Assembly: GCA_964558375.1 (NCBI GenBank)
Contig: CAZLCD010000001.1
Location: forward strand, 131,406 to 195,405
DNA: 64,000 nt
Reading direction: 5' to 3'
Source: an uncultured Candidatus Saccharibacteria bacterium
GTDB lineage: Bacteria; Patescibacteriota; Minisyncoccia; Phycocordibacterales; PALSA-1337
Below, one piece after another: positions 4,878-59,596 of the stretch. Numbering within the stretch: position 1 is the stretch's first letter; each line of letters begins with the position of its first letter. The notes beneath the pieces are model-generated. The model ran no database searches, was not told the origin of the DNA, and worked only from the letters and a program-made list of their open reading frames with translations. The position numbers were made by a program, and so were the translations under genes.

Positions 4878-6626
4878 ATGTTCATCGAAGATTCACAGCT
4901 TAATAAATTTATCCTTGATTCAAATCTTATATCAAAGGCTGATCTGGATTTGGCTGCAATTGAGGCAAAAGAAAAAGGCGTACGCCTCGGAGATATTCTA
5001 GTTAATACTGGCAAAATCACTGCCGATAATCTTCGCAGAATGCAAGCCTATGTGCTCGGTATACCTTTCGTTGATTTGAAAAATATAAAGATCCCTCTTG
5101 AGACTTTGTCTATGATCCCTGAGCCTGTAGCTCGCAATCACAATATCGTCGCTTTCAAAAAAGATGAACAATCCATGGAAGTGGCTATGCTCGATGTAGA
5201 TGATCTTTCTGCAATTGACTTCGTCAAGAAAAAAGTTTCTCTAAAGATTCTGCCAAGACTAACGGATTCAGAATCCATCAAGAATGCCATTATCCAATAT
5301 CAAAAGAGTTTGAAAGCCGAGTTTGGTGATCTTATTCAAAAAGAAACTGATGCACTAAAAACCGCTGTAGAAAAAACAGGGAATCCGACAACCGAAGAGG
5401 ATTTGAAAAAGGTAGCTTCTGACCTACCTGTGGTGCATATAGTCGACACTCTTCTCAAGCATGCTATTTTGCAAAATGCTTCAGATATACACATAGAGCC
5501 TATGGAAGAATCGTTACTTGTGAGATATCGCATCGATGGTCTGCTAAACGATGCTATGATTTTGCCGAAAAATGCTGAAGCCTCTATCACAGCGCGTATC
5601 AAAGTTCTTTCGAACTTGAAACTTGATGAGAAGCGCTTGCCACAAGATGGTCGCTTCAAGATAGAGATGAATGGAGAGAAGGTGAGCTTCCGAGTCTCGC
5701 TATTGCCGACCTACTATGGAGAAAAGACCGTGATGCGTCTCTTGCGAGAAAGTGTCTCTGGTTTTACTTTGGAATATCTTGGATTTCATGGTGAGGCTTT
5801 GGAGAGGATACATCATGCTAGTACTTTGACTACAGGTATGATACTCACCACTGGTCCTACAGGTTCCGGAAAGACCACAACCCTCTATACTATTCTCGAT
5901 ATTCTCAATCAGCCAGATGTCAACATTTCAACCATCGAAGATCCAGTGGAGTATCAAATGAAAAGAATTAATCAGACACAAGTAAAGCCTGATATTGGTT
6001 TTACATTTGCCTCGGGTTTGAGAACACTTGTCAGACAGGATCCAGATGTGATCATGGTTGGTGAGATTCGAGACAATGAAACTGCTTCACTTGCCGTCAA
6101 TGCCGCTTTGACTGGTCACCTTGTGCTCTCTACTCTACACACAAACAGCGCAGCTGGAGCTATACCGAGATTTTTGGATATGAAGATCGAACCATTCCTC
6201 TTGGTTTCTACGATCAATGTGATCATCGCTCAGAGGCTTGTGCGAAAGCTTTCTGAAAGTAAGCAGCAATATTTTTTGAATGCAGAAGAATTGGCAGTCT
6301 TGGCCAAAAGTGTCGATCTCGACAGGGTACTCGAAGCATTGAAGGTTGAGAAAGTAGTGAAGCCAGAGGATACTTGGGATAAGATTCCTTTGTATAAAGC
6401 TGTACCTTCGAAAGATAATGATGGATACAAAGGGCGTATCGGTATTCACGAAGTTTTGAAAGTTACACCGACCATCAAGGAACTTATCATCAAAGGTGCC
6501 ACTTCAGGCGAGATAGAAATCCAGGCCAAAAAGGAAGGCATGCTTACCATGATCGAAGATGGAATTTTCAATGTTGTTTCTGGTCGTACAACAATAGAAG
6601 AGGTGTTAAGGGTGATCTCCGAATAA
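4878..6626 (+). CDS. pilB: Type IV pilus / T2SS assembly ATPase (GspE/PilB family)
   Basis: N-terminal T2SSE_N-like domain, Walker A GPTGSGKTT, Asp box, His box (TGHLVLSTLHTN). Confidence 0.85.
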   Translation: MFIEDSQLNKFILDSNLISKADLDLAAIEAKEKGVRLGDILVNTGKITADNLRRMQAYVLGIPFVDLKNIKIPLETLSMIPEPVARNHNIVAFKKDEQSMEVAMLDVDDLSAIDFVKKKVSLKILPRLTDSESIKNAIIQYQKSLKAEFGDLIQKETDALKTAVEKTGNPTTEEDLKKVASDLPVVHIVDTLLKHAILQNASDIHIEPMEESLLVRYRIDGLLNDAMILPKNAEASITARIKVLSNLKLDEKRLPQDGRFKIEMNGEKVSFRVSLLPTYYGEKTVMRLLRESVSGFTLEYLGFHGEALERIHHASTLTTGMILTTGPTGSGKTTTLYTILDILNQPDVNISTIEDPVEYQMKRINQTQVKPDIGFTFASGLRTLVRQDPDVIMVGEIRDNETASLAVNAALTGHLVLSTLHTNSAAGAIPRFLDMKIEPFLLVSTINVIIAQRLVRKLSESKQQYFLNAEELAVLAKSVDLDRVLEALKVEKVVKPEDTWDKIPLYKAVPSKDNDGYKGRIGIHEVLKVTPTIKELIIKGATSGEIEIQAKKEGMLTMIEDGIFNVVSGRTTIEEVLRVISE

Positions 6627-6647
6627 TTTTATAGAAAAATTTATTAT

Positions 6648-7871
6648 ATGCCACATTTTATTTTTAAAGCAAAAAATTCTAGCGGACAAGTATACAAAGA
6701 TGAAAGAGATGCGAAGGATCGCTATGAACTTTACCGAATACTAAAAGAAAATGGTGAAGAAATAATAAAGATTAAGGAAAGAGAACACAGTATGTTTTCC
6801 TTCGCTAGACTTACGGCGCTTCTGCCCTTTGGCCATTCCATAAAGATCCAAGAGAAAATAACTTTGGCCAGAAATCTTGGAGCCATGATCACTGCCGGAC
6901 TTTCCATGTCACGCGCTTTGTCCGTGATCGAAAGACAAAGCAACAACAAGCTTCTGAAGAGGATTTTGAATACCTTAAAAACCAAAATCAGTGAAGGAAA
7001 GACCCTAAGTGAGGCTATGGGGCTTTATAAAAACATTTTTTCACCTATCTTCGTCTCTATGGTCAAAGCGGGGGAGCAGAGTGGAACTTTGGCGGAGTCT
7101 CTGCGAGTAGTGGCGGTGCAGATGGACAAATCCTTTGCTCTGCAAAGAAGAGTAAGGGGAGCCATGATGTATCCAGGCGTGATCCTTATCGCCATGATAC
7201 TTATTGCTATACTTATGCTTACATATATCGTTCCGACCTTGATGAAAACATTTACAGAACTAAAGCTCGATCTTCCTGCTTCTACAAAGTTTGTACTCTG
7301 GACTAGTAGCCTTGTAAGAGAGCATGGGTTCTTTCTTTTCTTGGCAATAGCAGTGGGACTTGGAATCTTTGTGGCTTGGTCCAAGCGCGCTTCTGGCAAA
7401 AAGGTTATACATTATGCCATTTTAAAAATCCCCATCATCGGCAACATTATCAAAGAGATTAACACTGCAAGAACAGCCAGAACTCTCTCTTCACTTATTT
7501 CGTCCGGTGTGGATATGATAGAAGCTATAAACATCACTACAGATGTTGTACAGAATGTGCACTATAAAGCGGTATTGAAAGAGACAAGTGAGGTGGTCAA
7601 AGCGGGAGGTCCGATGTCGGAAGTCTTCAGTCGGCATACCAAACTTTATCCGATCTTTATCGGAGAAATGATGAGTGTGGGTGAAGAAACTGGAAAGATA
7701 GGGGAGATGCTCCTCGGTGTGGCGGTGTTCTATGAAGATGATGTAGAACAAAAGACCAAGGACATGTCCACTGTGATCGAGCCTTTCCTTATGGTGACTA
7801 TCGGTGCGGTGGTCGGGTTCTTTGCAGTTGCGATGATTTCACCTATGTACTCATTGGTCAATGTAATCTAA
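6648..7871 (+). CDS. pilC: Type IV pilus / T2SS platform protein (GspF/PilC family)
   Basis: 407 aa, two GspF repeats, three TM segments, immediately downstream of pilB. Confidence 0.85.
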   Translation: MPHFIFKAKNSSGQVYKDERDAKDRYELYRILKENGEEIIKIKEREHSMFSFARLTALLPFGHSIKIQEKITLARNLGAMITAGLSMSRALSVIERQSNNKLLKRILNTLKTKISEGKTLSEAMGLYKNIFSPIFVSMVKAGEQSGTLAESLRVVAVQMDKSFALQRRVRGAMMYPGVILIAMILIAILMLTYIVPTLMKTFTELKLDLPASTKFVLWTSSLVREHGFFLFLAIAVGLGIFVAWSKRASGKKVIHYAILKIPIIGNIIKEINTARTARTLSSLISSGVDMIEAINITTDVVQNVHYKAVLKETSEVVKAGGPMSEVFSRHTKLYPIFIGEMMSVGEETGKIGEMLLGVAVFYEDDVEQKTKDMSTVIEPFLMVTIGAVVGFFAVAMISPMYSLVNVI

Positions 7872-9671
7872 ATGCCAAATCAAATTAAATTTAAACAAGG
7901 TTTCACTCTAGTCGAAGTTCTAGTCGGTATCGCCGTTTTTCTTTTGATCGCTACAGCTTCTTATCAAGCTTATATAAGCCTCTTTACTTTGATAAATTTG
8001 AATCAATACAAAATCACCGCGCTCAATCTGGTTAATGAGCAATTTGAAATTATTCGCAATCTTCCATACGCAGATGTTGGTGTGCAGGGAAGTATTCCAA
8101 AAGGCAAAATCCCTCATACACAGACTCTGACTCGAAGTGGTGTCACATTTGTAGTGACAGCAACGATCAGAAATGTTGATCTGCCTTTCGACGGAACTAT
8201 CGGTGGAAGTCCAAATGATCTTTCACCTTCGGATAATAAAATAGTTGAGATTCAAGTAGACTGTGCAAGTTGTAAAAGCTTTACACCTCTTAGTCTGACC
8301 ACAACAGTGGCACCGAAGAACTTGGAGACAGCTTCTACAAATGGTGCTCTATTTATCAGAGTCTTTGATGCAAATGGTATAGCTATACCTGATGCTTCGG
8401 TACATATTGTAAACAATAAGGTCAGCCCTGCTATCACAATCGATGATGTGACAGATGTAAACGGTATGCTTCAGATAGTTGATGTGCCTCCAGGTACCAA
8501 TGCCTATGAGATCACGGTTAGTAAAAATGGATATTCAAGCGATAGGACATATACGCCAGGAACACTAGAAAATCCAGATCCCACACAACCACATGCCAAT
8601 GTTCTTATTCAGCAAGTAACTCAAATAAGTTTTGTTATAGATCGACTCAGTACACTTTCATTCTCAAGTGTTACACCGACATGCCAAGCCGTGCCAAATA
8701 TTGACTTCAATTTGACTGGTGCAAAAACAATAGGCACCAATATCCCAAAATATTCACAGAACCTTATTACCAATAGCAGTGGAGTTTATTCAAACAGCGC
8801 AATAGAGTGGGATACGTATCAAGTTCTTGTGAATGATGCAGATTACAATATTATAGGCCTCAATCCTTTAAATCCTATTCTTCTAAATCCCAATAGTTCA
8901 CAGAATGTTCGACTCATTTTACAACCAAAGGATCCAAATACTTTACTTGTCACTATCAAAGATAGTGCTACGAATCTTCCTTTGACTGATGCTATGATCA
9001 AGGTGACAGGTCCAGCGTCTTTTAATGAGACCAAGATTTCTGGTCGAGGATTTATCAATCAGACGAACTGGTCTGGAGGTCCGAATCAAACTTTATACAC
9101 AGATCTGATCAAATATTTCTTTGATGATGGTAGTACAGAAATCGCCTCGCCCACTGGAGAGATCAAATTGAAAAATGTATTCGGCGCATATAACCCTAGT
9201 GCTGTGCTCGAATCCTCAACTATCGACACTGGATCTGTCAGTAATTTTTACAATCTGACTTGGGGTCCTGTGGATCAGCCTGTGCTTGCGGGGCCAGAAA
9301 GTGTGAAGTTCCAATTTGCAAGCAATGATAGTGATCCTGCGACCACAACATGGGAATATGTCGGTCCAGATGGCGCGACAACCACCTATTACACTTCTTC
9401 CAATACTTCGCTTTCATCTATTCACAATGGAGATCGCTATGCTCGCTACAAAGTTTTCTTGAAAACAGATTCGACCACCGTCACACCAAACATCTCTGAT
9501 GTGGCTTTCACTGTGACATCATCTTGTACACCTCCAGGGCAAGTCGTATTTTCTGGTTTGCCTTTAGGTACCTATCATGTCGAAGTCGGCAAGAGTGGGT
9601 ACGCTACCTCAACGCTTGATGTCGACTTGAATGTTCCATGGAAGGAGCAGGAGATGATTTTAAACCAATAA
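7872..9671 (+). CDS. Large prepilin-like protein (class III signal, 599 aa) with Ig-like/carboxypeptidase-regulatory-like repeats
   Basis: N-term KFKQGFTLVEVLVGIAVF (G|FTLVE with Glu+5); beta-rich T/S/N-rich body with motifs like IRVFDANGIAIPDASVHIV and GTYHVEVGKSGYATS. Confidence 0.7.
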   Translation: MPNQIKFKQGFTLVEVLVGIAVFLLIATASYQAYISLFTLINLNQYKITALNLVNEQFEIIRNLPYADVGVQGSIPKGKIPHTQTLTRSGVTFVVTATIRNVDLPFDGTIGGSPNDLSPSDNKIVEIQVDCASCKSFTPLSLTTTVAPKNLETASTNGALFIRVFDANGIAIPDASVHIVNNKVSPAITIDDVTDVNGMLQIVDVPPGTNAYEITVSKNGYSSDRTYTPGTLENPDPTQPHANVLIQQVTQISFVIDRLSTLSFSSVTPTCQAVPNIDFNLTGAKTIGTNIPKYSQNLITNSSGVYSNSAIEWDTYQVLVNDADYNIIGLNPLNPILLNPNSSQNVRLILQPKDPNTLLVTIKDSATNLPLTDAMIKVTGPASFNETKISGRGFINQTNWSGGPNQTLYTDLIKYFFDDGSTEIASPTGEIKLKNVFGAYNPSAVLESSTIDTGSVSNFYNLTWGPVDQPVLAGPESVKFQFASNDSDPATTTWEYVGPDGATTTYYTSSNTSLSSIHNGDRYARYKVFLKTDSTTVTPNISDVAFTVTSSCTPPGQVVFSGLPLGTYHVEVGKSGYATSTLDVDLNVPWKEQEMILNQ

Positions 9672-9673
9672 AA

Positions 9674-10303
9674 ATGATAAGAAAGAATATGAGAAAAAAT
9701 AATTTTAAAAAAGGTTTTACTTTAACAGAGATTGTTGTTGTACTCGGTATTCTTGGTTTAATTATGTTATCTGTGAGTTCTTTTCAAAGGGATGTGCTTG
9801 TTAATAATAAATTTTCTTCAGATTCTCTGACAACAATAGAAAACGCTAGGCCGATAATGAGAACAATTATAAGAAGTCTGCGCTCTGCTGGACCAAGTGA
9901 CAATGGCTCTTATGCTATAGCTCAAGCAGCTACAAATACGATCACCTTTTTTAGCGACGCAGATCTTGATGGTTTGAAAGAGCAGATAAGGTATTTCGTG
10001 CAGGGTACGGATCTAAAAATGGGATATGTGAAGCCTACCGGTTCTCCTTTGACTTACAATCAAGCCAATGAAGTGATCACTATCTTGGCCAATAGTGTGA
10101 AGAATGCTACAAGCACGGGGCTTTTTGAATATTATGATAAAAACTATACGGGTACGACCTCACCCATGACTTTACCTATCAATGTAACCTCTGTGCGTCT
10201 TATCAAGGTAAATCTAATGATAGATATAGACCCTAGCCGTTCGCCAGTACCTCGAATATATACTTCGCAAGTTAATATAAGAAATTTAAAGGATAATTTA
10301 TGA
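9674..10303 (+). CDS. Pseudopilin / minor pilin
   Basis: N-term KKGFTLTEIVVVLGILG prepilin cleavage/methylation motif with Glu+5. Confidence 0.65.
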   Translation: MIRKNMRKNNFKKGFTLTEIVVVLGILGLIMLSVSSFQRDVLVNNKFSSDSLTTIENARPIMRTIIRSLRSAGPSDNGSYAIAQAATNTITFFSDADLDGLKEQIRYFVQGTDLKMGYVKPTGSPLTYNQANEVITILANSVKNATSTGLFEYYDKNYTGTTSPMTLPINVTSVRLIKVNLMIDIDPSRSPVPRIYTSQVNIRNLKDNL

Positions 10304-15912: not shown

Positions 15913-16035
15913 AATCCTTAATCCTGCACCGCGGTTAAATTGGCAATGAGCCAATACATTCTGGCTCTATTTATACTCTTTTAAATAATCTAGTCAATCC
16001 TCATAAAAATTCCATCATGTTATACTTCCATCCAC

Positions 16036-17730
16036 ATGAAAAACTATAAAATCCGAGAAAAAATTAATGGTGATTTCATTGATCATCTTCTTTTCTATCG
16101 CAATATAAAGACTCCAGAAGCAAAGCAAGCTTTCTTAAATCCAAATTATGACGAACATATCCTCGATCCATTTTTATTGAAAGATGCAGAAAAATCAGCC
16201 AAAAGAATAGTCGAAGCTATAGAAAAAAGTGAAAAAATAGTGATATATAGTGACTATGATGCCGACGGTATACCTGCCGGGGTTATCTTCCATGACTTCT
16301 TTAAAAGGATCGGTTTTAAAAATTTTATAAATTATATTCCACATAGGCATGATGAAGGCTTTGGTCTAAACACTGACGCTATAGATCAATTTGTGAAAGA
16401 TAAAGTGGATCTTCTGATTACTCTTGATTGTGGAATTTCTGATATTGAAGCTGTAAAATTGGCAAAAGAAAATAAAATAGACGTAATCATTACAGATCAT
16501 CATGAGCCTCATGAGATTTTGCCAGACGCCTTTGCTATCGTTGATCATAAGCAGAAAGATTGCAATTATCCTGAAAAGATCCTTTGCGGTTCTGGTGTTG
16601 GATTCAAATTGATTCAAGCTGTACTTAAGGTCAAAAGATTTGATATGAAAGAAGGTCAAGAAAAATGGCTACTTGATATGGTAGGTATCGCTACACTTTC
16701 GGATATGGTTCCTTTGACGGGGGAGAATAGGGCTCTGGCACACTTTGGTTTGCGGGTTTTAAAGATCAGTCCACGTAAAGGTTTGATGAGACTTCTAAAT
16801 CATTTAAAAATTCCTCAGAAACATTTAACCGAAGATGATATAGGCTTTATGATTACACCACGTATCAATGCGGCATCACGAATGGGAATACCTATGGATG
16901 CCTTCAAATTGCTTTCAACAGATGATGACAACGAAGCTCATACCTTTGTAGAGCATCTTGATAAAATAAATACAGAGAGAAAAAGTGTAGTAGCCGGCCT
17001 TGTAAAAGAAGTAAAGAAGATTATGAAAGAAAGAAATAAAGATAATACTCGCAATGTCATAGTGATGGGTAATCCAGATTGGAAGCCATCTTTACTTGGG
17101 CTTGTAGCCAACAATCTTGCGGAAGAGTTCGGTAAGCCAGCTTTTCTTTGGGGGCGCGATGGAGATGGTGTTATCAAAGGCTCATGTCGTTCGGGGGATA
17201 CGGTCAGTGTTGTTGAGATTATGAACAAAAGTAAAGACGGAACCTTTATCCAGTATGGTGGACACTTTGCTTCTGGAGGCTTCGTGGTTTCAAATGAAGC
17301 TATACATCATCTCGACGATCATCTCAATGCTTCTTTTGATATTTTAAAAAAAGAAAATCTTATCAAAGAACCAGACTTTATAGATATGCAAATTTCTTTG
17401 GAGGAGGTCAATTGGAATACTTATAGTGATGTAGAGAAGCTGGCGCCTTTCGGTGTTGGCAATCATAAACCGCTTTTTATTTTTAAAAATATTAAAATTG
17501 CTGGTATCAAAGAATTTGGCAAAGAAAAGAATCATCTTGAATTAAGTTTTAAAAAAGAAAATGGACAACCAGTAAATGCTATCGGATTTTTCATGTTAGC
17601 CGATAATTTTAAAAATAAAGATGGAGAGACTATTAAAATAGGGGATAGTATCGATCTTATTGCTACTATGGAAAAGTCGATGTTTAGAGGAAGGGCAGAG
17701 CTAAGGATGAGGATTGTTGATATAATATAG
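16036..17730 (+). CDS. recJ: Single-stranded-DNA-specific exonuclease RecJ
   Basis: DHH motifs (YSDYDADGI, IITDHHEP), DHHA1-like region (GGHxxAxG). Confidence 0.8.
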   Translation: MKNYKIREKINGDFIDHLLFYRNIKTPEAKQAFLNPNYDEHILDPFLLKDAEKSAKRIVEAIEKSEKIVIYSDYDADGIPAGVIFHDFFKRIGFKNFINYIPHRHDEGFGLNTDAIDQFVKDKVDLLITLDCGISDIEAVKLAKENKIDVIITDHHEPHEILPDAFAIVDHKQKDCNYPEKILCGSGVGFKLIQAVLKVKRFDMKEGQEKWLLDMVGIATLSDMVPLTGENRALAHFGLRVLKISPRKGLMRLLNHLKIPQKHLTEDDIGFMITPRINAASRMGIPMDAFKLLSTDDDNEAHTFVEHLDKINTERKSVVAGLVKEVKKIMKERNKDNTRNVIVMGNPDWKPSLLGLVANNLAEEFGKPAFLWGRDGDGVIKGSCRSGDTVSVVEIMNKSKDGTFIQYGGHFASGGFVVSNEAIHHLDDHLNASFDILKKENLIKEPDFIDMQISLEEVNWNTYSDVEKLAPFGVGNHKPLFIFKNIKIAGIKEFGKEKNHLELSFKKENGQPVNAIGFFMLADNFKNKDGETIKIGDSIDLIATMEKSMFRGRAELRMRIVDII

Positions 17731-17733
17731 TTT

Positions 17734-18225
17734 ATGAATAATACAAATACAATAACAATCTTTACCGACGGTTCATCTCGTGGAAATCCTGGACGTGGAG
17801 GATGGGGTGCTATTGTTGTGTCTGGAAACGAAGTCAGAGAATTGGGTGGAAAGGAAGATCATACTACAAATAACAGAATGGAGCTTGTGGGGGCAATAGA
17901 GTCCTTAAAAAATGCTGATTCAAATTTACCTATCACCTTATATTCTGATTCTCAATACGTAATAAAAGGCATGACGGAATGGATAGCAGGGTGGCAAAAG
18001 AAAAACTGGATAAATTCTCAGAAAAAGCCGGTGATGAATCGAGATCTCTGGGAGAGTCTTCTTGAAGTTTCTTTGAATAAAAAAATAGAATGGAAATATA
18101 TAAAAGGTCATGCAGAAAATCCAGGCAACAATAGATGTGATGAGATTGCTACTTCATTTGCAGACGGAGAACCGACAAAACTATACGAAGGCTCCCTTGA
18201 CTCCTATCCCCATAAAGTTGTCTAA
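17734..18225 (+). CDS. rnhA: Ribonuclease HI
   Basis: TDGSSRGNPG...GWGA, NNRMEL, YSDSQYV, KGHAENPGNNRCDEIA. Confidence 0.85.
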   Translation: MNNTNTITIFTDGSSRGNPGRGGWGAIVVSGNEVRELGGKEDHTTNNRMELVGAIESLKNADSNLPITLYSDSQYVIKGMTEWIAGWQKKNWINSQKKPVMNRDLWESLLEVSLNKKIEWKYIKGHAENPGNNRCDEIATSFADGEPTKLYEGSLDSYPHKVV

Positions 18226-18293
18226 AGCAAATCTTTATCAAATCTTTATTATTTCTTTATCTTTTCTTAATGTCGGTTTGGTATGGTTGAGGG

Positions 18294-18785
18294 ATGATAA
18301 AAAGATTCAAAGAGTGGATAGTGCTCAAAGAAAAATTACATACAGTTTCCTATAATAAAACTCCTTATTTTAAGGAGGGAGAAATTTGGTGGTGTAGTAT
18401 AGGCGATAATGTTGGTAGTGAAATAAATGGCAAAAGTGGGTATTTCTCCAGACCAATTCTAGTTTTTAAAAAGTTCAACAAAAATTTATTTTTTGGAATA
18501 CCCTTAACTTCAAAACCAAAGATGGGTACATGGTTCGTGGGAATATCTTTTTTGAATAAGACACAGACTATTGTTTTAAGTCAGGCAAGAACTTTAGATG
18601 CAGCCAGAATTAAGGATTTAATCGGACAATGTGACGAGAGTGATTTTGAAAAGATAAAAGCTGGTTTTAGCCAGCTCTATCTAAATATTTCTCCCAATAA
18701 AGGGAGGTCGTGGGAAATCCCCAAAAATCTTCTCTTATATCTTAACAAAATAATTATACATGTCAAATCAAAATTCAAAATTTAA
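18294..18785 (+). CDS. MazF/PemK-family endoribonuclease toxin-like protein (no adjacent antitoxin seen)
   Basis: GEIWWCSIG..GSEING..RPILVF...GIPLTSKPK...VLSQARTLDAARI matches MazF/Kid core (GDIxxVDFDPTxGSEQxGxRPxVVxS...SQ). Confidence 0.6.
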   Translation: MIKRFKEWIVLKEKLHTVSYNKTPYFKEGEIWWCSIGDNVGSEINGKSGYFSRPILVFKKFNKNLFFGIPLTSKPKMGTWFVGISFLNKTQTIVLSQARTLDAARIKDLIGQCDESDFEKIKAGFSQLYLNISPNKGRSWEIPKNLLLYLNKIIIHVKSKFKI

Positions 18786-20142
18786 TTTTGTGATAGTTTC
18801 TATCCTAATATTAACCATCTCCCTCCGCTTATACTTCGCTCTCAATAATAACCATCGAGACGTCTTGGTTGAAAAATACTCGGGTAAAGTTTCTGAAGTT
18901 ACGGGTATTATTATCGATGAGCCCCTAACAAAAGATTTTACCAAGACCTTCACCGTAAAAACTGAAAGTATTATTGGCAATGATATCAATAACGATAGTG
19001 TAAATATAAATATCCGCGTTCAAACCGAAAGGTACTTGGATTATGAATATGGTCAGAAAATTCTTTTGAAAGGGAGGCTGTCGGCACCATTTAATTTTAA
19101 AAGTAATGGCGGCAGGACCTTTGATTATATCAATTTTCTTTTGAAAGACGGTATTTATTTTGAAATGAAAAAGCCCAGCATAGAAATTTTGGAAAGCGAG
19201 ACAGGAAGCATAGTTTCAAGAAATTTATTTAAAGTTAAACAAAAGTTTTTGAGAAATATAAAAAGAGTTTTGGGAGAACCACATGCTGCCTTGGCTGGAG
19301 GTCTTGTGGTGGGGGAGAAAAGTGCTTTGGGCAAAGATCTGCTTGAGGATTTTAGGTTGGTCGGACTCATACATATCATAGTTCTTTCTGGTTACAATAT
19401 AACCATCATTGCCGATTCTATAATGAAAATATTGTCTTTCTTACCCAGAACACTCGGTATTGTTACTGGAGGTTTTGGAATTGTAGCTTTCGGCATTCTT
19501 GTTGGTGGGGGAGCAACTGTTGTGCGCTCTTGCATCATGGCGGTGATCGCTCTATCAGGATCTCTCTTCCGTAAAGATTACAATGCGGGCAAAGCACTTT
19601 TTGTGGCTGGAGCTTTGATGTTAATCCAAAACCCTCTTATCCTTCTTTACGATCCTTCATTTCAACTTTCATTTCTAGCAACTATGGGACTTATTTTACT
19701 ATCTTCACCCATTGAAAATAAATTGAAATTCATCACAGAGAGGCTAGGCATGCGCTCTCTCATAGCCTCTACCTTTGCTACACAGATTTTTGTTTCGCCA
19801 TTTATTTTGCATATGATGGGACAACTTTCTTTGATAGGGGTGATCGTAAATATTTTGGTTTTACCGATTATCCCTCTAACCATGCTTTTTGTGGCACTGA
19901 CTGGTTTTGCTGGTTTTATTTCAAATACCCTGGCTTATATACCAGGGTATCTTTCTCATTTTCTATTGTCCTATGAACTTATGATTGTTAACCTTTTTGC
20001 AAAGGTGCCTTTTGCCTCGATCAATTTACCAAAGTTTTCTTTTTGGTTGGTAGTGGCCTTCTATGCTAGCTATTTTGTAGCTTCGATAAAGTTACCTTCA
20101 ACTTTCTCCCAATTCAAATTTAAAAAGAAATCTTCTACATAA
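18760..20142 (+). CDS. comEC: ComEC/Rec2 competence channel, membrane portion (DUF4131 + competence domain)
   Basis: N-terminal TM, OB-like region, ALAGGLVVGEKSALGKDLLEDFRLVGLIHIIVLSGYNI motif, multiple TM helices. Confidence 0.7.
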   Translation: MSNQNSKFNFVIVSILILTISLRLYFALNNNHRDVLVEKYSGKVSEVTGIIIDEPLTKDFTKTFTVKTESIIGNDINNDSVNINIRVQTERYLDYEYGQKILLKGRLSAPFNFKSNGGRTFDYINFLLKDGIYFEMKKPSIEILESETGSIVSRNLFKVKQKFLRNIKRVLGEPHAALAGGLVVGEKSALGKDLLEDFRLVGLIHIIVLSGYNITIIADSIMKILSFLPRTLGIVTGGFGIVAFGILVGGGATVVRSCIMAVIALSGSLFRKDYNAGKALFVAGALMLIQNPLILLYDPSFQLSFLATMGLILLSSPIENKLKFITERLGMRSLIASTFATQIFVSPFILHMMGQLSLIGVIVNILVLPIIPLTMLFVALTGFAGFISNTLAYIPGYLSHFLLSYELMIVNLFAKVPFASINLPKFSFWLVVAFYASYFVASIKLPSTFSQFKFKKKSST

Positions 20143-20621
20143 TTTTTCTTACCAGATGGGGCATAGTCTGCAACATATGAATGCTCCCACATATCAAGAG
20201 CAAGGATGATGGGGCAATTTTGTAGATGATTGATATGTTGCTCCTCAACCCAATTATTTATAAGGCATTTGTTTTCTCTGTCATAATAAAGCATAGCCCA
20301 ACCTATACCGCGAGTAAGAGCAATAGCTTTGAAGCTCACAAGCCATGCATCGAATGAATTGAAATCAGTCTCTATTTGTTTCTTGAGCAGGCTATTTTCA
20401 GAAAGAGCTTTCATGCCACCTTCCAGACTAGTGAAATATATTTCATGATTCCTCATGCCATTGTATTCGAAACCAAGTCTGCGAATATCTTGTTTTCCTT
20501 CCAGAGTTTCATTTAAATTCTTCACATAACCAGCATAAAGCTTCAAATGCTCCTCTATGGTTTTGCTCGAAATTCCTTTCAATGTCCCAATATTAAATTT
20601 TTTCTCGGTAAATGTTTTCAT
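20070..20621 (-). CDS. sodA: Fe/Mn superoxide dismutase
   Basis: Metal ligand context EEH..., NHEIYF, ILALDMWEHSY (D-x-W-E-H); ATG at 20621. Confidence 0.75.
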   Translation of the reverse strand: MKTFTEKKFNIGTLKGISSKTIEEHLKLYAGYVKNLNETLEGKQDIRRLGFEYNGMRNHEIYFTSLEGGMKALSENSLLKKQIETDFNSFDAWLVSFKAIALTRGIGWAMLYYDRENKCLINNWVEEQHINHLQNCPIILALDMWEHSYVADYAPSGKKNYVEDFFLNLNWEKVEGNFIEATK

Positions 20622-20639
20622 ATGATAACATTCTATCAC

Positions 20640-21410
20640 ATGAAAAAAATTAAAGGCATTAAAATATGGGTGTTCATACTTTTTACACTAGGGATTATCT
20701 CCTTAGGTCTCTATATTTATGCTTGGGAATATCGAAAGCCTCTACTCGAGGTGGATTTCTTTAGCTTAAATAAGGGTAGGGCGATTTTTGTTCGTACGCC
20801 TATGAATAAGACTATTTTAATAGGTGGAGGACAGAATTCTGAAACTATAAGGGAAATCACAAAGCAAATGCCTTTTTATTCAAAAAAGATTGACACCGTG
20901 ATTATTCCTAGCGCTACAGCCGCTCAGATCGGCGGGTTAATAGAGATTGTAGACAGATATGAGATTGAGGAGATTTTAATACCAAAGACGCTATCAACAA
21001 GCACAGTTCTGACTCAATTAATGAAAGAGGTGAGAAAAAATAAAATCCATGTGGAGGAAGTAGAAAGGGGAGACACTATAGAAATTGAAAATGATTTAAG
21101 TTTTGAAATTCTATTTCCTTATGAAGAATTTAAATTTAATAAAACAAGTCTACCTGAACTTGGCTTAGCTATTTTATACAAGGATACCGGCGCATATCTC
21201 ATGGGGAATTTATCAAAGACAATTCAAAAAGATATTGCGCAAAACTTGTCTGTAACCACCAAAAACATTCTAGAATATTATCATAGCGCTACAGATACGA
21301 AGGTCTCTCCAGACCTTGTAGAGAAGCTAGACCCAAAATTTACTTTTTCAACAAAAGAAAAATCCATAAAATGGATTTCTGAGGGGGTAGAATGGATTAA
21401 GGGGAAATAA
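20640..21410 (+). CDS. ComEC C-terminal metallo-beta-lactamase-like domain protein, degenerate (HxHxDH replaced)
   Basis: TM + GRAIFVRTP...ILIGGGQ...TVIIPSATAAQIGGL resembles ComEC MBL domain but lacks His/Asp ligands. Confidence 0.5.
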   Translation: MKKIKGIKIWVFILFTLGIISLGLYIYAWEYRKPLLEVDFFSLNKGRAIFVRTPMNKTILIGGGQNSETIREITKQMPFYSKKIDTVIIPSATAAQIGGLIEIVDRYEIEEILIPKTLSTSTVLTQLMKEVRKNKIHVEEVERGDTIEIENDLSFEILFPYEEFKFNKTSLPELGLAILYKDTGAYLMGNLSKTIQKDIAQNLSVTTKNILEYYHSATDTKVSPDLVEKLDPKFTFSTKEKSIKWISEGVEWIKGK

Positions 21411-21432
21411 AAACTACTATTAGAACTAAGAA

Positions 21433-21675
21433 TTAAATAATCCCTGCTTTCTTGAGAGTTGCAAAAGCACCACGCTTCTTGATAGTTCGAAGAGCCTTAG
21501 TTGAGATAGTAAGGTTGAAAGACTTTTTGAGTTCAGGAACATAGATCTTCTTTTTTTGAAGATTTGGATACTTGCGTACCATTCCTGTAGGGTTAAACTG
21601 AGTAGCACGAGTGGCGTTTGAATATCCGCCTGCTACCATTGAACCTTTCTTTGTAATATCACAAACTTTAGCCAT
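21433..21675 (-). CDS. rpmB: 50S ribosomal protein L28
   Basis: MAKVCDITKKG...RATQFNPTG signature. Confidence 0.8.
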   Translation of the reverse strand: MAKVCDITKKGSMVAGGYSNATRATQFNPTGMVRKYPNLQKKKIYVPELKKSFNLTISTKALRTIKKRGAFATLKKAGII

Positions 21676-21726
21676 AGTGTTGATTATGCTATCATAAGTC
21701 TTATATTTAGCAAGTAATATTACAAT

Positions 21727-22332
21727 ATGGACCCATTAACTTTCACCGTTTCTGTTATTATATTGGTCATGTCTGTTGTTCTACATGAGCTTGCTCATGG
21801 CTATACAGCAGAGCTTCTTGGCGACCCTACTCCACGTTTACAAGGTCGACTTACTCTAAATCCACTCAAACATTTAGAATTATTTGGTTCTCTGATAGTG
21901 CCCCTCATTACTTCTATGACTGGCTTCATTTTTGGTTGGGCAAAGCCTGTGCAGTGGAATCCTTATAATGTAAAAAATAAAAGATGGGGAGAGCTTATCA
22001 TATCTATCGCTGGACCAGCTTCAAATATTTTTATTGCTATAGTTTTTGGATTGGTGATTAGGTTTTTTGGTGAAAGTTTCTCTACAGCTTTCTTGCAAAT
22101 CTCAACTTATGTCATCTTGATCAATGTTGTCTTGGCAGTATTTAATCTTGTACCGATACCACCACTTGATGGCTCAAAGGTCTTATTTTCTCTATTACCA
22201 CCTCATCTGGGGTATGTAAGAGAGTTTATCGAAAAGTATTCGATATTTCTTTTCCTCTTCCTGATTCTCTTCCTCTGGAGATTCATAGAACCTATAGTGC
22301 CATTTATTTTTAAAACTATTTTAGGGGTTTAA
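21727..22332 (+). CDS. Site-2 protease family (M50-like) membrane metalloprotease
   Basis: HELAHG zinc motif in first TM, NLVPIPPLDGSK motif, multi-TM. Confidence 0.6.
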   Translation: MDPLTFTVSVIILVMSVVLHELAHGYTAELLGDPTPRLQGRLTLNPLKHLELFGSLIVPLITSMTGFIFGWAKPVQWNPYNVKNKRWGELIISIAGPASNIFIAIVFGLVIRFFGESFSTAFLQISTYVILINVVLAVFNLVPIPPLDGSKVLFSLLPPHLGYVREFIEKYSIFLFLFLILFLWRFIEPIVPFIFKTILGV

Positions 22333-22481
22333 ATTTGCCTTTTCTGCTCAATATGATAGAGTACTTTCACGTTGTAAAACGAAAAGGGGTGAGTAACCGC
22401 TAGGTGAAAACAATCAACCCTTTTGTAAAAATAAGTAATTATTAAATATTAGTCGAGTTAATTAAATAAGTTAAATAAATA

Positions 22482-22901
22482 ATGCCAACAATCAATCAGC
22501 TTATACGCAAAAACCGTGTGCGATTTATCAAAAAGACAAAGTCTATAGCATTGACTAGAAGTTTCAATACTATTAAGAACCGTCCGAACTTTTTCCCATC
22601 TCCATTTAAAAGAGGAGTATGTATAAAGGTTACAACAAAGACTCCAAAGAAACCAAACTCAGCTATACGAAAGATCGCCCGAGTAAGACTTTCAAATGGT
22701 CTAGAAGTAACAGCCTATATTCCAGGAGAAGGACACAATCTTCAAGAACACTCAGTGGTTCTCTTGAGAGGAGGTCGCGTAAAGGACGTTGGACTTCGAT
22801 ATACAGTAGTACGAGGTGTGCTCGATGCAGCTGGAGTAGAGAAGCGCCGAAAGGGTCGAAGTCAATACGGAAACAAGAAGCCAAAGGCAGCCAAGGCTTA
22901 A
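22482..22901 (+). CDS. rpsL: 30S ribosomal protein S12
   Basis: [10 protein letters not shown]...conserved S12 sequence. Confidence 0.95.
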
Positions 22902-22948
22902 GCTTAGTATCCAATCTTACATTAACCAACAATTTTAATTAAAATACT

Positions 22949-23419
22949 ATGAGAAGAAGAATAAAGAATAAGCATATACTTAAGCCAGAATCTGTCTATG
23001 AAAGCGTCAAAGTTTCAAAGCTTATAAACTATGTCATGGACTCAGGCAAAAAGGCTACAGCTCGCAAGGTTGTATATGATTGCTTCGAATATATAAAAGA
23101 AAAGTCAAAGACTGAAGCTCCTTTGGAAGTTTTTGAAACTGCTTTGAAGAACACTATGCCAGCTATGGAAGTGCGCTCAAGAAGAGTGGGAGGTGCAAAC
23201 TATCAAGTTCCTCGAGAAGTTCGTCCAGAAAGACAGCGCTCACTTTCTATGAAATGGATTGTGCTTGCAGCTCGCTCAAAGAAGGGAAAGCCAATGGCAG
23301 AAAAGCTTGGAGATGAGATCATCGCAGCTTCAAAGAATGAGGGAGAAGCAGTGAAGAAGCGTGAAAATACTCACAAGATGGCAGAGGCAAACAAAGCATT
23401 CGCTCACTTTGCTTGGTAG
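22949..23419 (+). CDS. rpsG: 30S ribosomal protein S7
   Basis: Conserved S7 sequence. Confidence 0.95.
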   Translation: MRRRIKNKHILKPESVYESVKVSKLINYVMDSGKKATARKVVYDCFEYIKEKSKTEAPLEVFETALKNTMPAMEVRSRRVGGANYQVPREVRPERQRSLSMKWIVLAARSKKGKPMAEKLGDEIIAASKNEGEAVKKRENTHKMAEANKAFAHFAW

Positions 23420-23480
23420 GGGTTTTTGGTATAGTTGGTTTTTATAATTTTAGTCTATATAATTTATCTATATTTAATTT

Positions 23481-25625
23481 ATGCAAAGAGATTATCCATT
23501 AGAAAAAGTTCGTAATTTCGGTATCATCGCTCACATCGACGCTGGTAAAACTACTACATCAGAACGTATTTTGTATTACACAGGTATGATCCATAAGATC
23601 GGTGAAGTACATGAAGGAGAGACAACTACAGACTGGATGGAGCAGGAAAGAGAGCGAGGTATCACTATTACTGCCGCTGCCATCACTTGTTTCTGGAACC
23701 CTTCATACATGCCAAAAACAGACGTTTCAAAAAAGGTACGCTTCAATGTTATCGACACCCCAGGACATATCGACTTTACAGTAGAGGTAAAGCGATCTTT
23801 GCGCGTGCTTGACGGTGCTGTGGTGGTATTCGATGGAGTAGCGGGTGTAGAGCCTCAATCAGAGACCAACTGGCGTTATGCAGATGAAAGCAATGTACCT
23901 AGACTTTGCTTTATAAATAAAATGGACAGAATGGGTGCTTCTTTTGAAAGATCATATGCTTCAATTCTTGAAAGATTAAATAAAAAGGCTGTAAGATTTC
24001 AGATTCCTATAGGAACAGAAGGGGATCACAATGGAGTTATCGATCTTCTTAAAATGAAAGCTTATTACTTTGAAGGTGAAAAGGGTATAGAAGTTATAGA
24101 AAAGGAAATTCCAGAAAACCTTCTAGCTGACGCAAAGAAATATCATGCTGAGCTTATAGAAAAAGCTGTAGAACACAATGATGTGCTTATGCAACAATAC
24201 CTAGACGGTAAAGAAATCCCAGTCGAAGTTCTAAAGACTGAGATCCGAAAACTTGTGATCGACAACAAAATCTTCCCAGTATTTACAGGTTCTGCTCTTA
24301 AGAATGTCGGAGTTCAGCTAGTACTAGACGCGGTGGTTGATTATCTACCAGCCCCTACAGATATAAAGGCAGTAAGAGGTATAGATCCAAACACAGGTGA
24401 GGAGGTTTTCCGTGGACCATCTGATGAAGAACCTTTTGCGGCACTAGCCTTCAAGCTTCAGAACGATCCATTCGTAGGACAGCTGACCTTCTTTAGAGTA
24501 TATTCTGGAACAATAGAAGCTGGAACCTATCTTTACAATGCTACAACTGGCAAGAAGGAGAGACTTGGACGTATAGTGCGCCTACAAGCTGATAAAAGAG
24601 AAGAGGTTAAGAAAGTTTTTGCTGGAGAGATCGCTGCAGCAGTAGGTCTAAAGGATGCCCTTACTTCACATACTTTCTGCGATGAAGAAAAACCAATAGT
24701 TCTAGAGACGATCAAGTTCCTAGAGCCTGTGGTTTCTCTACGTGTAGAGCCAAAGACCAAAGCTGATCAAGAGAAAATGGGTATGGCACTCAAAAAGCTT
24801 GGAAATGAAGATCCAACATTTAAGATTTCTTCAAATAGCGAAACAGGAGAAACCATCATCTCAGGTATGGGAGAATTGCACTTGGACATTATGGTTGATC
24901 GTATGAAAAGAGAATTCGGTGTAGAAACTACAGTCGGTAAGCCTCAAGTAGCATACAGAGAGACAATTATGGGTACAGCAGAAGCAGAACACAAGTACAT
25001 CAAGCAATCAGGAGGTAAGGGTCAATACGGTCACGTAAAGATCAATATCAAGCCTATGGAAAAACTTGTCGAAGGTGAGAAGATTGCAAAGAATATTAGT
25101 CGATATGATGATTTCGAATTCATCAACTCTATAAAAGGAGGAGTTATCCCTCAAGAGTTCATCCCTGCAGTAGAGAAGGGGGTTCACGAGGCTATGGATC
25201 GAGGTATTGTCGCAGGTTTCCGTATGGTAAATGTAAGTTGCGAATTAACTTTCGGTTCTTACCATGATGTAGACTCATCCGAAATCGCTTACAAGATCGC
25301 AGGATCACAAGCCTTCCAAGAAGCTGCAAAGCGTGCACGTCCAGTTATTCTAGAACCTATCATGAAGCTTGAAGTTCTTTTCCCAGACAAATTCATGGGT
25401 GATGTTACAGGAAGTATCTCTTCAAAGAGAGGAACAATCGAGGAAATGACCGAAAGAGGTCAAGCCAAAGTTCTACATGCTATGGTCCCTCTTTCAGAAA
25501 TGTTCGGATACACTACTCAGCTTCGTTCAATGACTTCAGGACAAGGTTCAGCAACAATGGAATTTGATCATTACGAAGTGGTTCCAAAGAACGTTGAGGC
25601 GTCTATTGTGGAGGCGAGGAAGTAG
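23481..25625 (+). CDS. fusA: Elongation factor G
   Basis: AHIDAGKTT, DTPGHIDF G-domain motifs, 714 aa. Confidence 0.95.
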   Translation: MQRDYPLEKVRNFGIIAHIDAGKTTTSERILYYTGMIHKIGEVHEGETTTDWMEQERERGITITAAAITCFWNPSYMPKTDVSKKVRFNVIDTPGHIDFTVEVKRSLRVLDGAVVVFDGVAGVEPQSETNWRYADESNVPRLCFINKMDRMGASFERSYASILERLNKKAVRFQIPIGTEGDHNGVIDLLKMKAYYFEGEKGIEVIEKEIPENLLADAKKYHAELIEKAVEHNDVLMQQYLDGKEIPVEVLKTEIRKLVIDNKIFPVFTGSALKNVGVQLVLDAVVDYLPAPTDIKAVRGIDPNTGEEVFRGPSDEEPFAALAFKLQNDPFVGQLTFFRVYSGTIEAGTYLYNATTGKKERLGRIVRLQADKREEVKKVFAGEIAAAVGLKDALTSHTFCDEEKPIVLETIKFLEPVVSLRVEPKTKADQEKMGMALKKLGNEDPTFKISSNSETGETIISGMGELHLDIMVDRMKREFGVETTVGKPQVAYRETIMGTAEAEHKYIKQSGGKGQYGHVKINIKPMEKLVEGEKIAKNISRYDDFEFINSIKGGVIPQEFIPAVEKGVHEAMDRGIVAGFRMVNVSCELTFGSYHDVDSSEIAYKIAGSQAFQEAAKRARPVILEPIMKLEVLFPDKFMGDVTGSISSKRGTIEEMTERGQAKVLHAMVPLSEMFGYTTQLRSMTSGQGSATMEFDHYEVVPKNVEASIVEARK

Positions 25626-40880: not shown

Positions 40881-42251
40881 ATGAGCGCATACGTAACATT
40901 TTATAGTGGTGTAGGAAGTGTAACTGGTGCCAATTTTCTTTTGGAATTGGGATCAAAGAAAATTTTAATTGATTGTGGTTTGATACAGGGTGAGAAGACG
41001 GCACAACTAGAGAATCGTAATGATTTTGAATATGATCCAAAAAGTATCGATATGCTTTTTGTTACTCATGCACATCTTGACCATGTCGGTCGTATAGGCA
41101 AGCTTGTAAAGGATGGTTTTAATGGAGTTATATATTCTACCCCAGAAACCTTGGCTCTAGCTGAACTTATTCTTGAAGATGCTGTAGGACTTCTACAAAA
41201 AGAAGCAATGAATGAAGGTCTGACACCGATATATGAACTTGCCGATATGCAGAAAGCTATCAATCTCTGGAAGACTATCCCATATCATACAGAAACAACT
41301 TTCGATTCTGGAATCGGAGGTGGATTCTCGGTCTATCTGAAGGATGCCGGACATATTCTCGGCTCTTCCATTATTCAATTCACCTTCGAAAATAAAAAAA
41401 TAGTTTTTACTGGAGACTTGGGCAACAGCCCAACACCTCTTTTAAGAGATACAGAATCTATTACTGGTGCAGATTATGTGATCATGGAAAGTGTATACGG
41501 AGATCGCAATCATGAATCAAAAGATCAGAGAAGGAAAAAGCTCGAAGAGATTATAAAAGACACGATCAATAAAAAGGGAACATTGATAATCCCAGCTTTT
41601 TCTCTAGAAAGAACCCAAGTCATTCTTTATGAAATTAATAATCTTGTAGAGTCAAAGGTTATACCTGTAATACCGGTCTATGTAGATTCTCCTTTGGCCA
41701 CAAAAGTTACCGATGTATACAAAAGCAGTACGCATCTTTTTAATGAACGTACACAGGCTGAGATACGGGGCGGGGATGATATCTTTAATTTTCCAAAACT
41801 ATCCTTTACTGTCGATGTAGATTCTTCTCGTGCCATCGATCATGCTTCATCTCCGAAGATAATTGTGGCTGGTTCTGGTATGTCTGTAGGTGGAAGGGTT
41901 CTTCATCATGAAGAGGTCTATCTCTCAGATCCCAAGAATACTATTCTCTTGGTTGGATATCAAACCATCGGTTCGGTCGGTCGTCACTTACTTAACGGAG
42001 AAAAGAGAGTAATAATTCACAAAAATGAAATTAAAGTCGCTGCAAAAATAGAGTCTATACTAGGCTATTCGTCTCACAAAGACTCTGATCGTCTTGTAGA
42101 ATTTGTAGAGACTACTCACAGTACTGTGAAGAAGATTTTTGTGGCGATGGGGGAGCCGAAAGCCTCTCTTTTCCTTGCACAAAAAATCCGAGATAATCTC
42201 GGACTTAATGCTCTGTACCCAGAGAGGCTTGTGAAATACAAGCTCGACTAG
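40881..42251 (+). CDS. MBL-fold beta-CASP family hydrolase (RNA-metabolising nuclease-like)
   Basis: HAHLDHVGR (HxHxDH), beta-CASP region, C-terminal His. Confidence 0.7.
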   Translation: MSAYVTFYSGVGSVTGANFLLELGSKKILIDCGLIQGEKTAQLENRNDFEYDPKSIDMLFVTHAHLDHVGRIGKLVKDGFNGVIYSTPETLALAELILEDAVGLLQKEAMNEGLTPIYELADMQKAINLWKTIPYHTETTFDSGIGGGFSVYLKDAGHILGSSIIQFTFENKKIVFTGDLGNSPTPLLRDTESITGADYVIMESVYGDRNHESKDQRRKKLEEIIKDTINKKGTLIIPAFSLERTQVILYEINNLVESKVIPVIPVYVDSPLATKVTDVYKSSTHLFNERTQAEIRGGDDIFNFPKLSFTVDVDSSRAIDHASSPKIIVAGSGMSVGGRVLHHEEVYLSDPKNTILLVGYQTIGSVGRHLLNGEKRVIIHKNEIKVAAKIESILGYSSHKDSDRLVEFVETTHSTVKKIFVAMGEPKASLFLAQKIRDNLGLNALYPERLVKYKLD

Positions 42252-45394: not shown

Positions 45395-45489
45395 AATTTC
45401 CGTATTTGTTTTTGTTGTGTCTGGTATTGCCCAGCGTTGTTCAAGCTGCGGGTAGCATATGATTTAACTTGGCTACTGTCAAATTTTGT

Positions 45490-58321: not shown

Positions 58322-58391
58322 TTATCGATCAATAGATATACACATACAACCTATCGATATTTCTTTATTATTTTAGTATACTTAGGTTTAA

Positions 58392-59024: not shown

Positions 59025-59028
59025 CCAT

Positions 59029-59586: not shown

Positions 59587-59596
59587 TAAAAAATAT

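Follow-up and report, generated by a model that had tools for sequence, protein, structure and literature searches.

A two-gene comEC with a ligand-poor nuclease-like half and an antisense superoxide dismutase gene between the halves in Patescibacteria

The split comEC locus

The 64,000-nucleotide stretch of DNA analyzed here (the window; GenBank assembly GCA_964558375.1, contig CAZLCD010000001.1, positions 131,406 to 195,405 of the forward strand), from an uncultured, ultra-small Candidatus Saccharibacteria bacterium, carries the DNA uptake gene comEC as two genes, with a superoxide dismutase (SOD) gene on the opposite strand between them. The first gene, comEC-N (ORF1, for open reading frame 1; 18760-20142, plus strand), encodes 460 amino acids with an oligonucleotide/oligosaccharide-binding (OB) fold (DUF4131) and a competence/channel domain. 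The second, comEC-C (ORF2; 20640-21410, plus strand), is a separate ORF 497 nt downstream of ORF1 and encodes 256 amino acids with one transmembrane (TM) helix and a metallo-β-lactamase (MBL)-fold domain. Between them lies sod (20070-20621, minus strand), encoding a short-hairpin variant of Fe/Mn SOD of 183 amino acids. Its 3' end overlaps that of the convergent comEC-N by 73 nt (20070-20142), and its start codon is separated from that of the divergent comEC-C by 18 nt (20622-20639). Public gene calls yield the same three proteins, and the sod/ORF2 junction is identical in an independent SRA assembly, so the three ORFs stand where an earlier note, made from the letters of the window, had placed them. 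That note had described a split comEC with a degenerate nuclease domain and an antisense SOD gene wedged between the halves. Comparison with relatives identifies the ComEC halves, the predicted dead nuclease domain, and the antisense SOD gene as traits inherited across a lineage and not as a local disruption.

The ORF1 product has the Pfam Competence domain (PF03772; E = 2.5e-46, 158.7 bits against a cutoff of 23) and the OB-fold domain DUF4131 (PF13567; E = 1.8e-13, 51 bits against a cutoff of 31.6). It aligns with positions 79 to 403 of the 663 positions of the TIGR00361 ComEC_Rec2 model and has no C-terminal MBL-fold domain on the same polypeptide. ORF2 supplies the part that ORF1 lacks, aligning with model positions 419 to 632 (E = 1.9e-10). 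Scored singly, at 82.3 bits for ORF1 and 39.5 bits for ORF2, both fall below the curated equivalog cutoff of 190 bits. By hydropathy, only one TM helix precedes the OB fold in ORF1, at residues ~10 to 28 (18787-18843); most ComEC orthologues are reported to have three N-terminal helices, and that of Helicobacter pylori has one (PMC13539106). The C-terminal tail of ORF1 is rich in lysine (FKFKKKSST, with four K/R and no D/E). ORF2 opens with MKKIKGIK, eight residues of which four are lysines, and continues with one TM helix at residues 9 to 27, the equivalent of the last TM helix of ComEC.

ORF2 matches no Pfam family above the cutoff (the best is Lactamase_B_6, with 15.7 bits against 27), whereas its canonical stand-alone relatives match Lactamase_B (PF00753). 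Profile and structure comparisons assign it to ComEC. The profile of the ORF2 family matches residues 514 to 744 of the solved ComEC 30bt_A (E = 7.9e-10) and also matches 9ic4. An AlphaFold2 model of ORF2 (pLDDT 88.3, pTM 0.85) has an N-terminal helix at residues 2 to 30 followed by an alpha/beta sandwich. The top Foldseek match of this model is the ComEC beta-lactamase-like domain 9ic4 (E = 8.9e-18, TM-score 0.74), and MBL-fold proteins head the list of 140 PDB matches at E of ≤0.001. The earlier note had proposed that canonical ComEC is divided here into an N-terminal and a C-terminal ORF, which the complementary TIGR00361 ranges, the profile match, and the fold all confirm; the possibility it had allowed for, that the MBL part belongs to a different family, is contradicted by the matches to ComEC 30bt_A and 9ic4.

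Loss of the metal ligands in ComEC-C

The segment of ORF2 from residue 86 to residue 100, TVIIPSATAAQIGGL (residues 85 to 99 read DTVIIPSATAAQIGG), aligns with the HxDxDH-IGGL motif of solved ComEC. The former HxDxDH motif (motif 2; 20910-20927, plus strand) now reads S91-A-T93-A-A95-Q96 and is followed by the conserved IGGL. The other motifs have changed as well: motif 1, canonically D-V-G-Q-G-D, reads S-L-N-K-G-R; the canonical Asp of motif 4 is N190; and the His-His of motif 5 is H-S (Y-N-S in most relatives). In a ligand table built against solved ComEC and canonical stand-alone relatives, the ligand string of ORF2 is SR/STAQ/F/N/HS, compared with DD/HDDH/F/D/HH in those relatives. Only one of nine ligand-type positions is kept in the window, compared with eight or nine of nine in 44 related loci. 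The earlier claim that the MBL part has lost its His/Asp ligands thus holds at every motif. The check proposed with it, whether relatives keep the motif intact, has a divided answer, as the 44 loci do and the sub-clade of the window is ligand poor.

The domain has not decayed along with its ligands. Mean column identity in the ORF2 family is 57% (29 sequences), and the residues that stand in place of ligands are among the conserved ones: R47, S91, and N190 are invariant, and Q96 is nearly so. Conservation that includes the replaced ligand positions is the signature of a pseudo-enzyme under selection, and the MBL domain of ORF2 is most likely a noncatalytic pseudo-nuclease subunit.

Age and extent of the split

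Detectable close relatives of ORF2 numbered 138, and those listed have 206 to 299 amino acids. In a profile search that was exhaustive over 1.84 billion representatives (50% clustering), the best 150 ORF2 representatives (E < 1e-28) were all stand-alone proteins of 100 to 396 amino acids, matched from their own N terminus; none lay inside a long ComEC. The same separation is seen from the other half: all 120 listed relatives of ORF1 have 352 to 463 amino acids and contain DUF4131 and Competence domains only, with no MBL domain. The search for fused comEC in related genomes that the earlier note had called for therefore returned no fusion in either set. Some distant stand-alone relatives of ORF2 retain the canonical motifs, and in one locus with canonical motifs (L042) the MBL gene is preceded, at a distance of 8 nt, by an ORF that aligns with the end of ComEC-N. 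The comparisons place the split of comEC as ancient and general in this part of Patescibacteria.

Viewed in the single window, in which ORF1 runs into the end of sod and ORF2 starts right after the start of sod, the split could also be read as an assembly or sequencing frameshift, or as recent pseudogenization of comEC by a horizontally acquired sod. We regard this as having next to no chance of being correct. All three ORFs recur intact in 35 species-level genomes and in dozens of metagenomic contigs from unrelated samples (~80 metagenomic loci), and the diversity of the public assemblies rules out an error common to all of them. Hainich groundwater wells are the source of several of the loci. 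The junction is the same in the independent assembly, both comEC halves are conserved as proteins, the clade shares an orthologous SOD, and base composition is unremarkable, with GC content level along the locus. Insertion of sod as the event that split comEC was rejected separately, by the MBL gene of L042 that abuts comEC-N and by a split that extends far wider than the SOD context. Neither a frameshift, which the earlier note had named as something that would refute its reading, nor a sod wedged into comEC accounts for the 150 stand-alone ORF2 representatives and the absence of a fusion among the 120 ORF1 relatives.

Méheust et al. 2019 (PMC6744442) reported that ComEC is present in 86% of genomes of the candidate phyla radiation (CPR) and that the ComEC-MBL fusion is essentially absent there. 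In the literature, we found no paper describing an MBL part encoded separately beside comEC-N. Our data indicate that in the sampled lineages the MBL part is a separate neighboring gene and is not simply absent.

Gene order and sequence of events

Using the ORF2 profile, we collected 35 species-level genomes, and in every locus long enough the order is comEC-N (plus), sod (minus), comEC-C (plus), within the block recJ-rnhA-...-rpmB-M50-rpsL-rpsG-fusA. In the window, the upstream neighbors are recJ (16036-17730, plus strand; Pfam DHH/DHHA1/RecJ_OB) and rnhA (17734-18225, plus strand; Pfam RNase_H), whose order is the same in loci L001, L003, L005, L043, and L047. Downstream are rpmB (21433-21675, minus strand; Pfam) and an M50 peptidase gene (21727-22332, plus strand; Pfam), followed by rpsL-rpsG-fusA, an order likewise kept in relatives.

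A second scan of metagenomes was anchored on SOD; from 404 relatives, 80 loci were kept, and 49 were testable. A convergent comEC-N lies within 2 kb of sod in 48 of the 49 loci, and a divergent comEC-C lies within 1.5 kb in 46. Between comEC-N and sod, the distance varies from -1713 to +76 nt, and only 14 of 48 loci have an overlap. Most of the lineages found in this way retain canonical MBL ligands. Locus L047, for example, has a canonical MBL half with sod between the halves, and its identity to the window is 61% for SOD, 43% for ComEC-N, and 27% for ComEC-C.

A ComEC-N tree groups all ligand-poor lineages in a single clade nested within the ligand-intact ones, and L043, which has no sod, falls among sod-bearing relatives. 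This nesting implies that sod was between the halves before the ligands were lost. The interval between the two comEC halves of L043 shows no detectable trace of sod. The most parsimonious order is the split of the gene, the arrival of sod between the halves, a single loss of ligands, and a secondary loss of sod in L043. An order in which ligand loss preceded the insertion of sod, with L043 taken as a sod-less sister, was considered and is overturned by L047, the SOD-anchored scan, and the ComEC-N tree. Of the picture in the earlier note, the position of sod between the halves and the degenerate nuclease domain both remain; the former is an ancient arrangement shared with canonical-MBL lineages and no local curiosity, and the latter is a later event limited to one nested sub-clade.

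Some loci depart from this layout in detail. A rare exception is metagenome locus L055 (~6659-8121), where the two comEC halves follow one another directly on the same strand and sod is ~1.7 kb off. Small ORFs without a family lie beside sod between the halves in L047 (2268-2711, 147 amino acids; 3642-3917, 91 amino acids and hydrophobic) and L001 (4461-4862, 133 amino acids); with such ORFs inserted in some lineages, the comEC interval is plastic while the gene order is fixed. The 170-nt gap between the halves in L043 holds a GC-richer element (3825-3945) with a 14-bp stem, GATCTTCTCT...AGAGAAGATC, which folds at -45.3 kcal/mol (z = -3.5 versus shuffles) and has no Rfam match.

The SOD gene and its overlap with comEC-N

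The sod product matches Pfam Sod_Fe_C (PF02777; E = 1.3e-21, 77 bits against a cutoff of 20.9). Sod_Fe_N (PF00081) reaches 17.5 bits against a cutoff of 27; the hairpin is present, with a 15-residue deletion relative to relatives of 194 to 198 amino acids. The ligands H25, H59, D143, and H147 are all present, and the family alignment shows no variation at these positions. Among solved structures, the best relatives are 1coj and 1ma1, Fe-SODs of Aquifex and archaea, and the alignment to them spans the last three ligands. The likely start codon is the ATG at 20621, and the GTG at 20639 is an unlikely one. Two length classes, 182 to 186 amino acids (including that of the window, with the hairpin deletion) and 194 to 199 amino acids, both occur within the close clade, and the usual H-x-x-x-H-H motif reads H-L-K-L-Y-A. 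The Sod_Fe_C match, the four ligands, and the 73-nt overlap agree with the earlier description of a complete antisense Fe/Mn SOD gene overlapping the 3' end of ORF1. The same note had suggested that an SOD may be notable if the host is an anaerobic fermenter. However, 66 to 83% of groundwater Patescibacteria metagenome-assembled genomes (MAGs) carry one (PMC8672522), which makes its presence here ordinary, and SodFM enzymes from CPR have already been characterized (PMC10172142). There is no sign of a recent horizontal origin of sod, which is the best conserved of the three genes and lies in a region of flat GC content.

The overlap with comEC-N is exactly 73 nt in 36 of 37 close-clade loci and 44 nt in L039. 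The two frames share third codon positions in the overlap, and the ORF1 stop lies opposite SOD codons 160 and 161 (N-Y). In this arrangement, a pyrimidine-ending codon followed by Tyr produces a stop; Tyr161 is invariant, and codon 160 ends in T or C in 35 of 35 variants. Further stops in the ORF1 frame are possible only opposite SOD Tyr, His, and Gln, which make up 1.3% of the SOD tail compared with 11.5% of the remaining protein. Dual-coding selection was considered as an explanation and rejected. Third-position entropy in the overlap is 0.89 versus 1.07 elsewhere (P = 0.31), with no excess constraint, and the depletion of Tyr, His, and Gln is mostly intrinsic to the SOD family, as the share is 3.2% in lineages with no overlap versus 1.3% here (P = 0.016). 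The Phe codon before Gln167 is TTC in 8 of 8 cases compared with 10 of 27 (P = 0.003, uncorrected for shared ancestry), a choice that avoids TGA in the ORF1 frame. We conclude that the constant 73 nt follows mostly from the invariant Tyr161 and the conserved C terminus of SOD, with at most weak selection to keep the Lys-rich tail of ORF1 open.

Signals between sod and comEC-C

The gap between the start codons of sod and comEC-C in relatives has a mode of 14 nt (11 of 35) and a median of 27 nt. The eight bases before the comEC-C ATG, ATTCTATC, are conserved. With the start codon included, their minus-strand reading is CAT-G-A-TAGAAT, that is, TGnTAnnnT, an extended -10-like element pointing toward sod. 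Across 35 loci, the TG is found in 28, TAnnnT in 26, and a match to TATAAT at no fewer than five of six positions in 24, with the position fixed beside the comEC-C ATG; in most relatives, the TG uses the T of the comEC-C start codon. In the window, the conserved element is TGATAGAAT (20630-20638, minus strand, read from 20638 to 20630), and the hexamer ends 8 nt before the sod ATG, compared with 6 nt in the loci with a 14-nt gap. An extended -10 promoter adjoining or overlapping the start codon of comEC-C probably gives rise to a sod mRNA with little or no leader. At -12 to -7 from the comEC-C ATG, some relatives with longer gaps carry a TATAAT or TATGAT hexamer, which the 14-nt-gap loci lack.

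No Shine-Dalgarno-like sequence was found before recJ, rnhA, comEC-N, sod, comEC-C, rpmB, M50, rpsL, rpsG, or fusA (16000-23500), which hints at widespread leaderless or Shine-Dalgarno-independent initiation in this genome. Hexamers resembling a -10 element end 5 to 8 nt before several starts, for instance, AATAAT before comEC-N and TAATAT before M50.

The close packing of the three genes raises the question of whether the position of sod is functional, with an excludon-like arrangement in which antisense transcripts would make DNA uptake and defense against oxidative stress mutually exclusive. Transcripts of comEC-N continuing to comEC-C would cross sod in antisense, and those of sod would extend in antisense into comEC-N. 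The comEC-N/sod/comEC-C order is kept in 46 to 48 of 49 loci despite the variable spacing and the changing small ORFs, and in the close clade the 73-nt overlap leaves no room for a terminator, only 14 to 18 nt lie between sod and comEC-C, and the putative sod promoter overlaps the comEC-C start codon. Yet the whole recJ to fusA neighborhood is equally conserved, so that synteny inertia suffices. In addition, L043 lost sod and retained both comEC halves, the halves are adjacent in L055 with sod far from them, and the hexamers before comEC-C in some longer-gap relatives suggest an independent promoter. We consider a functional position of sod quite improbable.

Other genes in the window

Genes for type IV pili occur in the same window as the comEC halves, in two sets. 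The first (4878-10303) comprises a PilB-like ATPase, PilC, and two large pilin-like proteins with N-methylation motifs, and the second (57206-63118) comprises PilM, a second PilB-like ATPase, and a PilT-like ATPase. Their presence fits a DNA uptake apparatus, and a cultivated Saccharibacterium requires comEC for transformation (PMC10633639).

We identified no replacement nuclease in the window. It does encode a beta-CASP metallo-beta-lactamase nuclease (40881-42251, plus strand), which is readily recognized by Pfam and in this respect provides an internal contrast to ORF2, and a two-domain PLD-family protein (43398-44477, minus strand) that could be a lipid synthase or a nuclease; nothing ties either of them to uptake.

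The first 26 nt of comEC-N are shared with an ORF for a PemK/MazF-like toxin (18294-18785, plus strand, 163 amino acids; Pfam E = 3.7e-12). The ORFs listed beside this toxin ORF include no evident antitoxin gene, although no specific search was made. A PemK-like gene is found at the same position in L001 and is absent there in L003 and L005. No Rfam family was found in or near the comEC locus. Farther away are a tmRNA gene (45486-45906, minus strand; Rfam, 99.9 bits) and tRNA genes at 48823-48896 and 51706-51793 (both plus strand).

Proposed function of the two halves

We think it likely that the locus encodes a two-gene ComEC uptake channel, formed by an ancient split, with sod between the genes, a later loss of ligands, and a C-terminal half that has become a pseudo-nuclease. 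The comEC-N product would provide the OB fold and the membrane channel, and the comEC-C product would provide the last TM helix and an outward-facing MBL domain at the channel entrance. The break would lie in the cytoplasmic loop before the last, peripheral TM helix. Both of the new ends are Lys rich, and by the positive-inside rule this places both in the cytoplasm and the MBL-like domain outside, so that the pair retains the topology of the fused protein. TM10 and TM11 occupy peripheral positions in solved ComEC, whose MBL domain is carried on a flexible linker and placed by contact with the OB fold (PMC13539106). Fe/Mn sod settled between the halves while the MBL domain was canonical and was inherited there. 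In one sub-clade, to which the genome of the window belongs, all ligand positions of the nuclease domain were later replaced while the domain itself stayed conserved (R47, S91, Q96, N190). The C-terminal half of ComEC may still help to form or position the DNA entrance there, in which case the other strand would be degraded by a different enzyme or not at all. Our comparisons establish the homology and fold of the halves, their conservation and synteny, the loss of ligands, and the order of events; we infer the physical association of the two ComEC halves, the loss of nuclease activity, and the sod promoter.

Several observations weigh against this picture. A model of the two concatenated halves was of low confidence (pLDDT 64, pTM 0.45), and the fold library contained no full-length ComEC; the OB-domain structure 9iew was among the fold matches of this model. 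With the halves separated by an opposite-strand sod, there is no simple comEC operon. The motif-3 column of the ligand table is Phe in all members, the canonical ones included, and may be misaligned or not a ligand position, and an unconventional active site in ORF2 is conceivable, the loss of activity being deduced from its residues. The ComEC-N tree is a simple neighbor-joining tree with no support values. As to the promoter, a generic scan of the region for promoters and terminators gave nothing above shuffled expectation, and TAnnnT hexamers are common in an AT-rich genome, so the call depends on conservation.

An alternative is that ORF2 has left the uptake machine and is now a membrane-anchored extracytoplasmic binding or scaffold protein that sits beside comEC-N by inherited gene order only. 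The replacement of all ligand positions would fit this, as would the position of ORF2 outside a simple operon with comEC-N. ORF2 has also diverged much faster than its neighbors when degenerate lineages are compared with canonical ones (identity of 27%, with ComEC-N at 43% and SOD at 61%), and the replaced positions are invariant and could mark a new site. However, comEC-N and comEC-C remain neighbors in all loci of sufficient length, ORF2 retains the ComEC-type last TM helix, and within the degenerate clade its rate resembles that of ComEC-N (51 to 67% versus 57 to 74% identity). Moreover, the ComEC of Streptococcus pneumoniae is thought to retain an inactive MBL domain in a working ComEC (PMC12455585). 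We therefore consider a departure of ORF2 from the uptake machine unlikely, and favor the two-gene channel.

A more speculative extension, to which we give little credence, combines two ideas: sod would be a conserved antisense switch that makes channel assembly and the stress response exclusive, and the former metal site (Arg47, Ser91, Gln96, Asn190) would have turned into a metal-free site that holds phosphate or DNA. Under the first idea, comEC-C would be expressed together with comEC-N only through antisense transcription across sod, whose putative promoter lies on the start codon of comEC-C. If the ligand-less site does so, uptake in this sub-clade would proceed without degradation of the second strand at the channel.

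Significance

ComEC is the universal gate of DNA entry, and in Patescibacteria it is discussed in connection with transformation and nucleotide scavenging. A separate, membrane-anchored MBL gene product changes the assumed content of the uptake machine of this group. The locus amounts to a natural split-protein experiment, in which the loop before the last TM helix would be a permissive break point and which suggests that the nuclease domain can work in trans. It also provides work on ComEC mechanism with a naturally occurring variant predicted to be catalytically dead. A domain that is conserved and yet has no ligands argues for a structural role at the channel entrance that is independent of catalysis, and this bears on structural models of ComEC. 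As a gene kept between the halves, sod offers a clean, datable synteny marker for the clade and possibly a regulatory link. Known biology is not overturned by these findings, nor do they describe a new kind of system; they do point to a risk in annotation, where ORF2 may be called hypothetical and ComEC truncated.

Comparison with known systems

Canonical ComEC/Rec2, as represented by 30bt (PMC13539106) and the Moorella glycerini structures 9ic4 and 9iew (PMC12455585), shares with the proteins described here the OB fold, the channel, the last TM helix, the outward MBL domain, and the order of these parts. Unlike in canonical ComEC/Rec2, the parts are here divided over two polypeptides, a single TM helix precedes the OB fold, the MBL ligands are replaced, and the TIGR00361 score stays below the cutoff. 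The ComEC of S. pneumoniae also retains an MBL domain without the full set of metal ligands in a ComEC system; its beta-lactamase-like domain is presumed to be inactive, and EndA serves as the nuclease (PMC12455585). Retention of such a domain implies that its role is structural and that the strand is degraded elsewhere. In contrast to our case, in which the domain is a separate product and essentially all ligands are lost, the pneumococcal protein is a single chain that has lost only some of them, and no EndA-type partner was identified here. H. pylori ComEC (ComE3; PMC12455585, PMC13539106), with one TM helix, an OB fold, and the channel, resembles ComEC-N on its own. It has no MBL partner, whereas here a homologous MBL-fold partner is encoded next door.

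The CPR ComEC proteins of Méheust et al. 2019 (PMC6744442) come from the same organisms and show the same missing fusion, but that study did not report the neighboring gene for an MBL domain with a TM helix, the ligand-less sub-clade, or sod between the halves. The SOD of the window has the four ligands, the D-x-W-E-H motif, and the C-terminal domain of the tetrameric archaeal and Aquifex SodFM3/4 enzymes (PMC10172142), from which it differs in having H-L-K-L-Y-A for H-x-x-x-H-H and the 15-residue deletion in the hairpin, with an N-terminal domain below the Pfam cutoff.

Excludon-type antisense loci, as in Listeria, consist of opposite-strand neighbors with overlapping transcripts. Their likeness to the comEC locus is one of layout only, as the 73-nt overlap and the divergent gap of 14 to 18 nt are here features of the DNA sequence.

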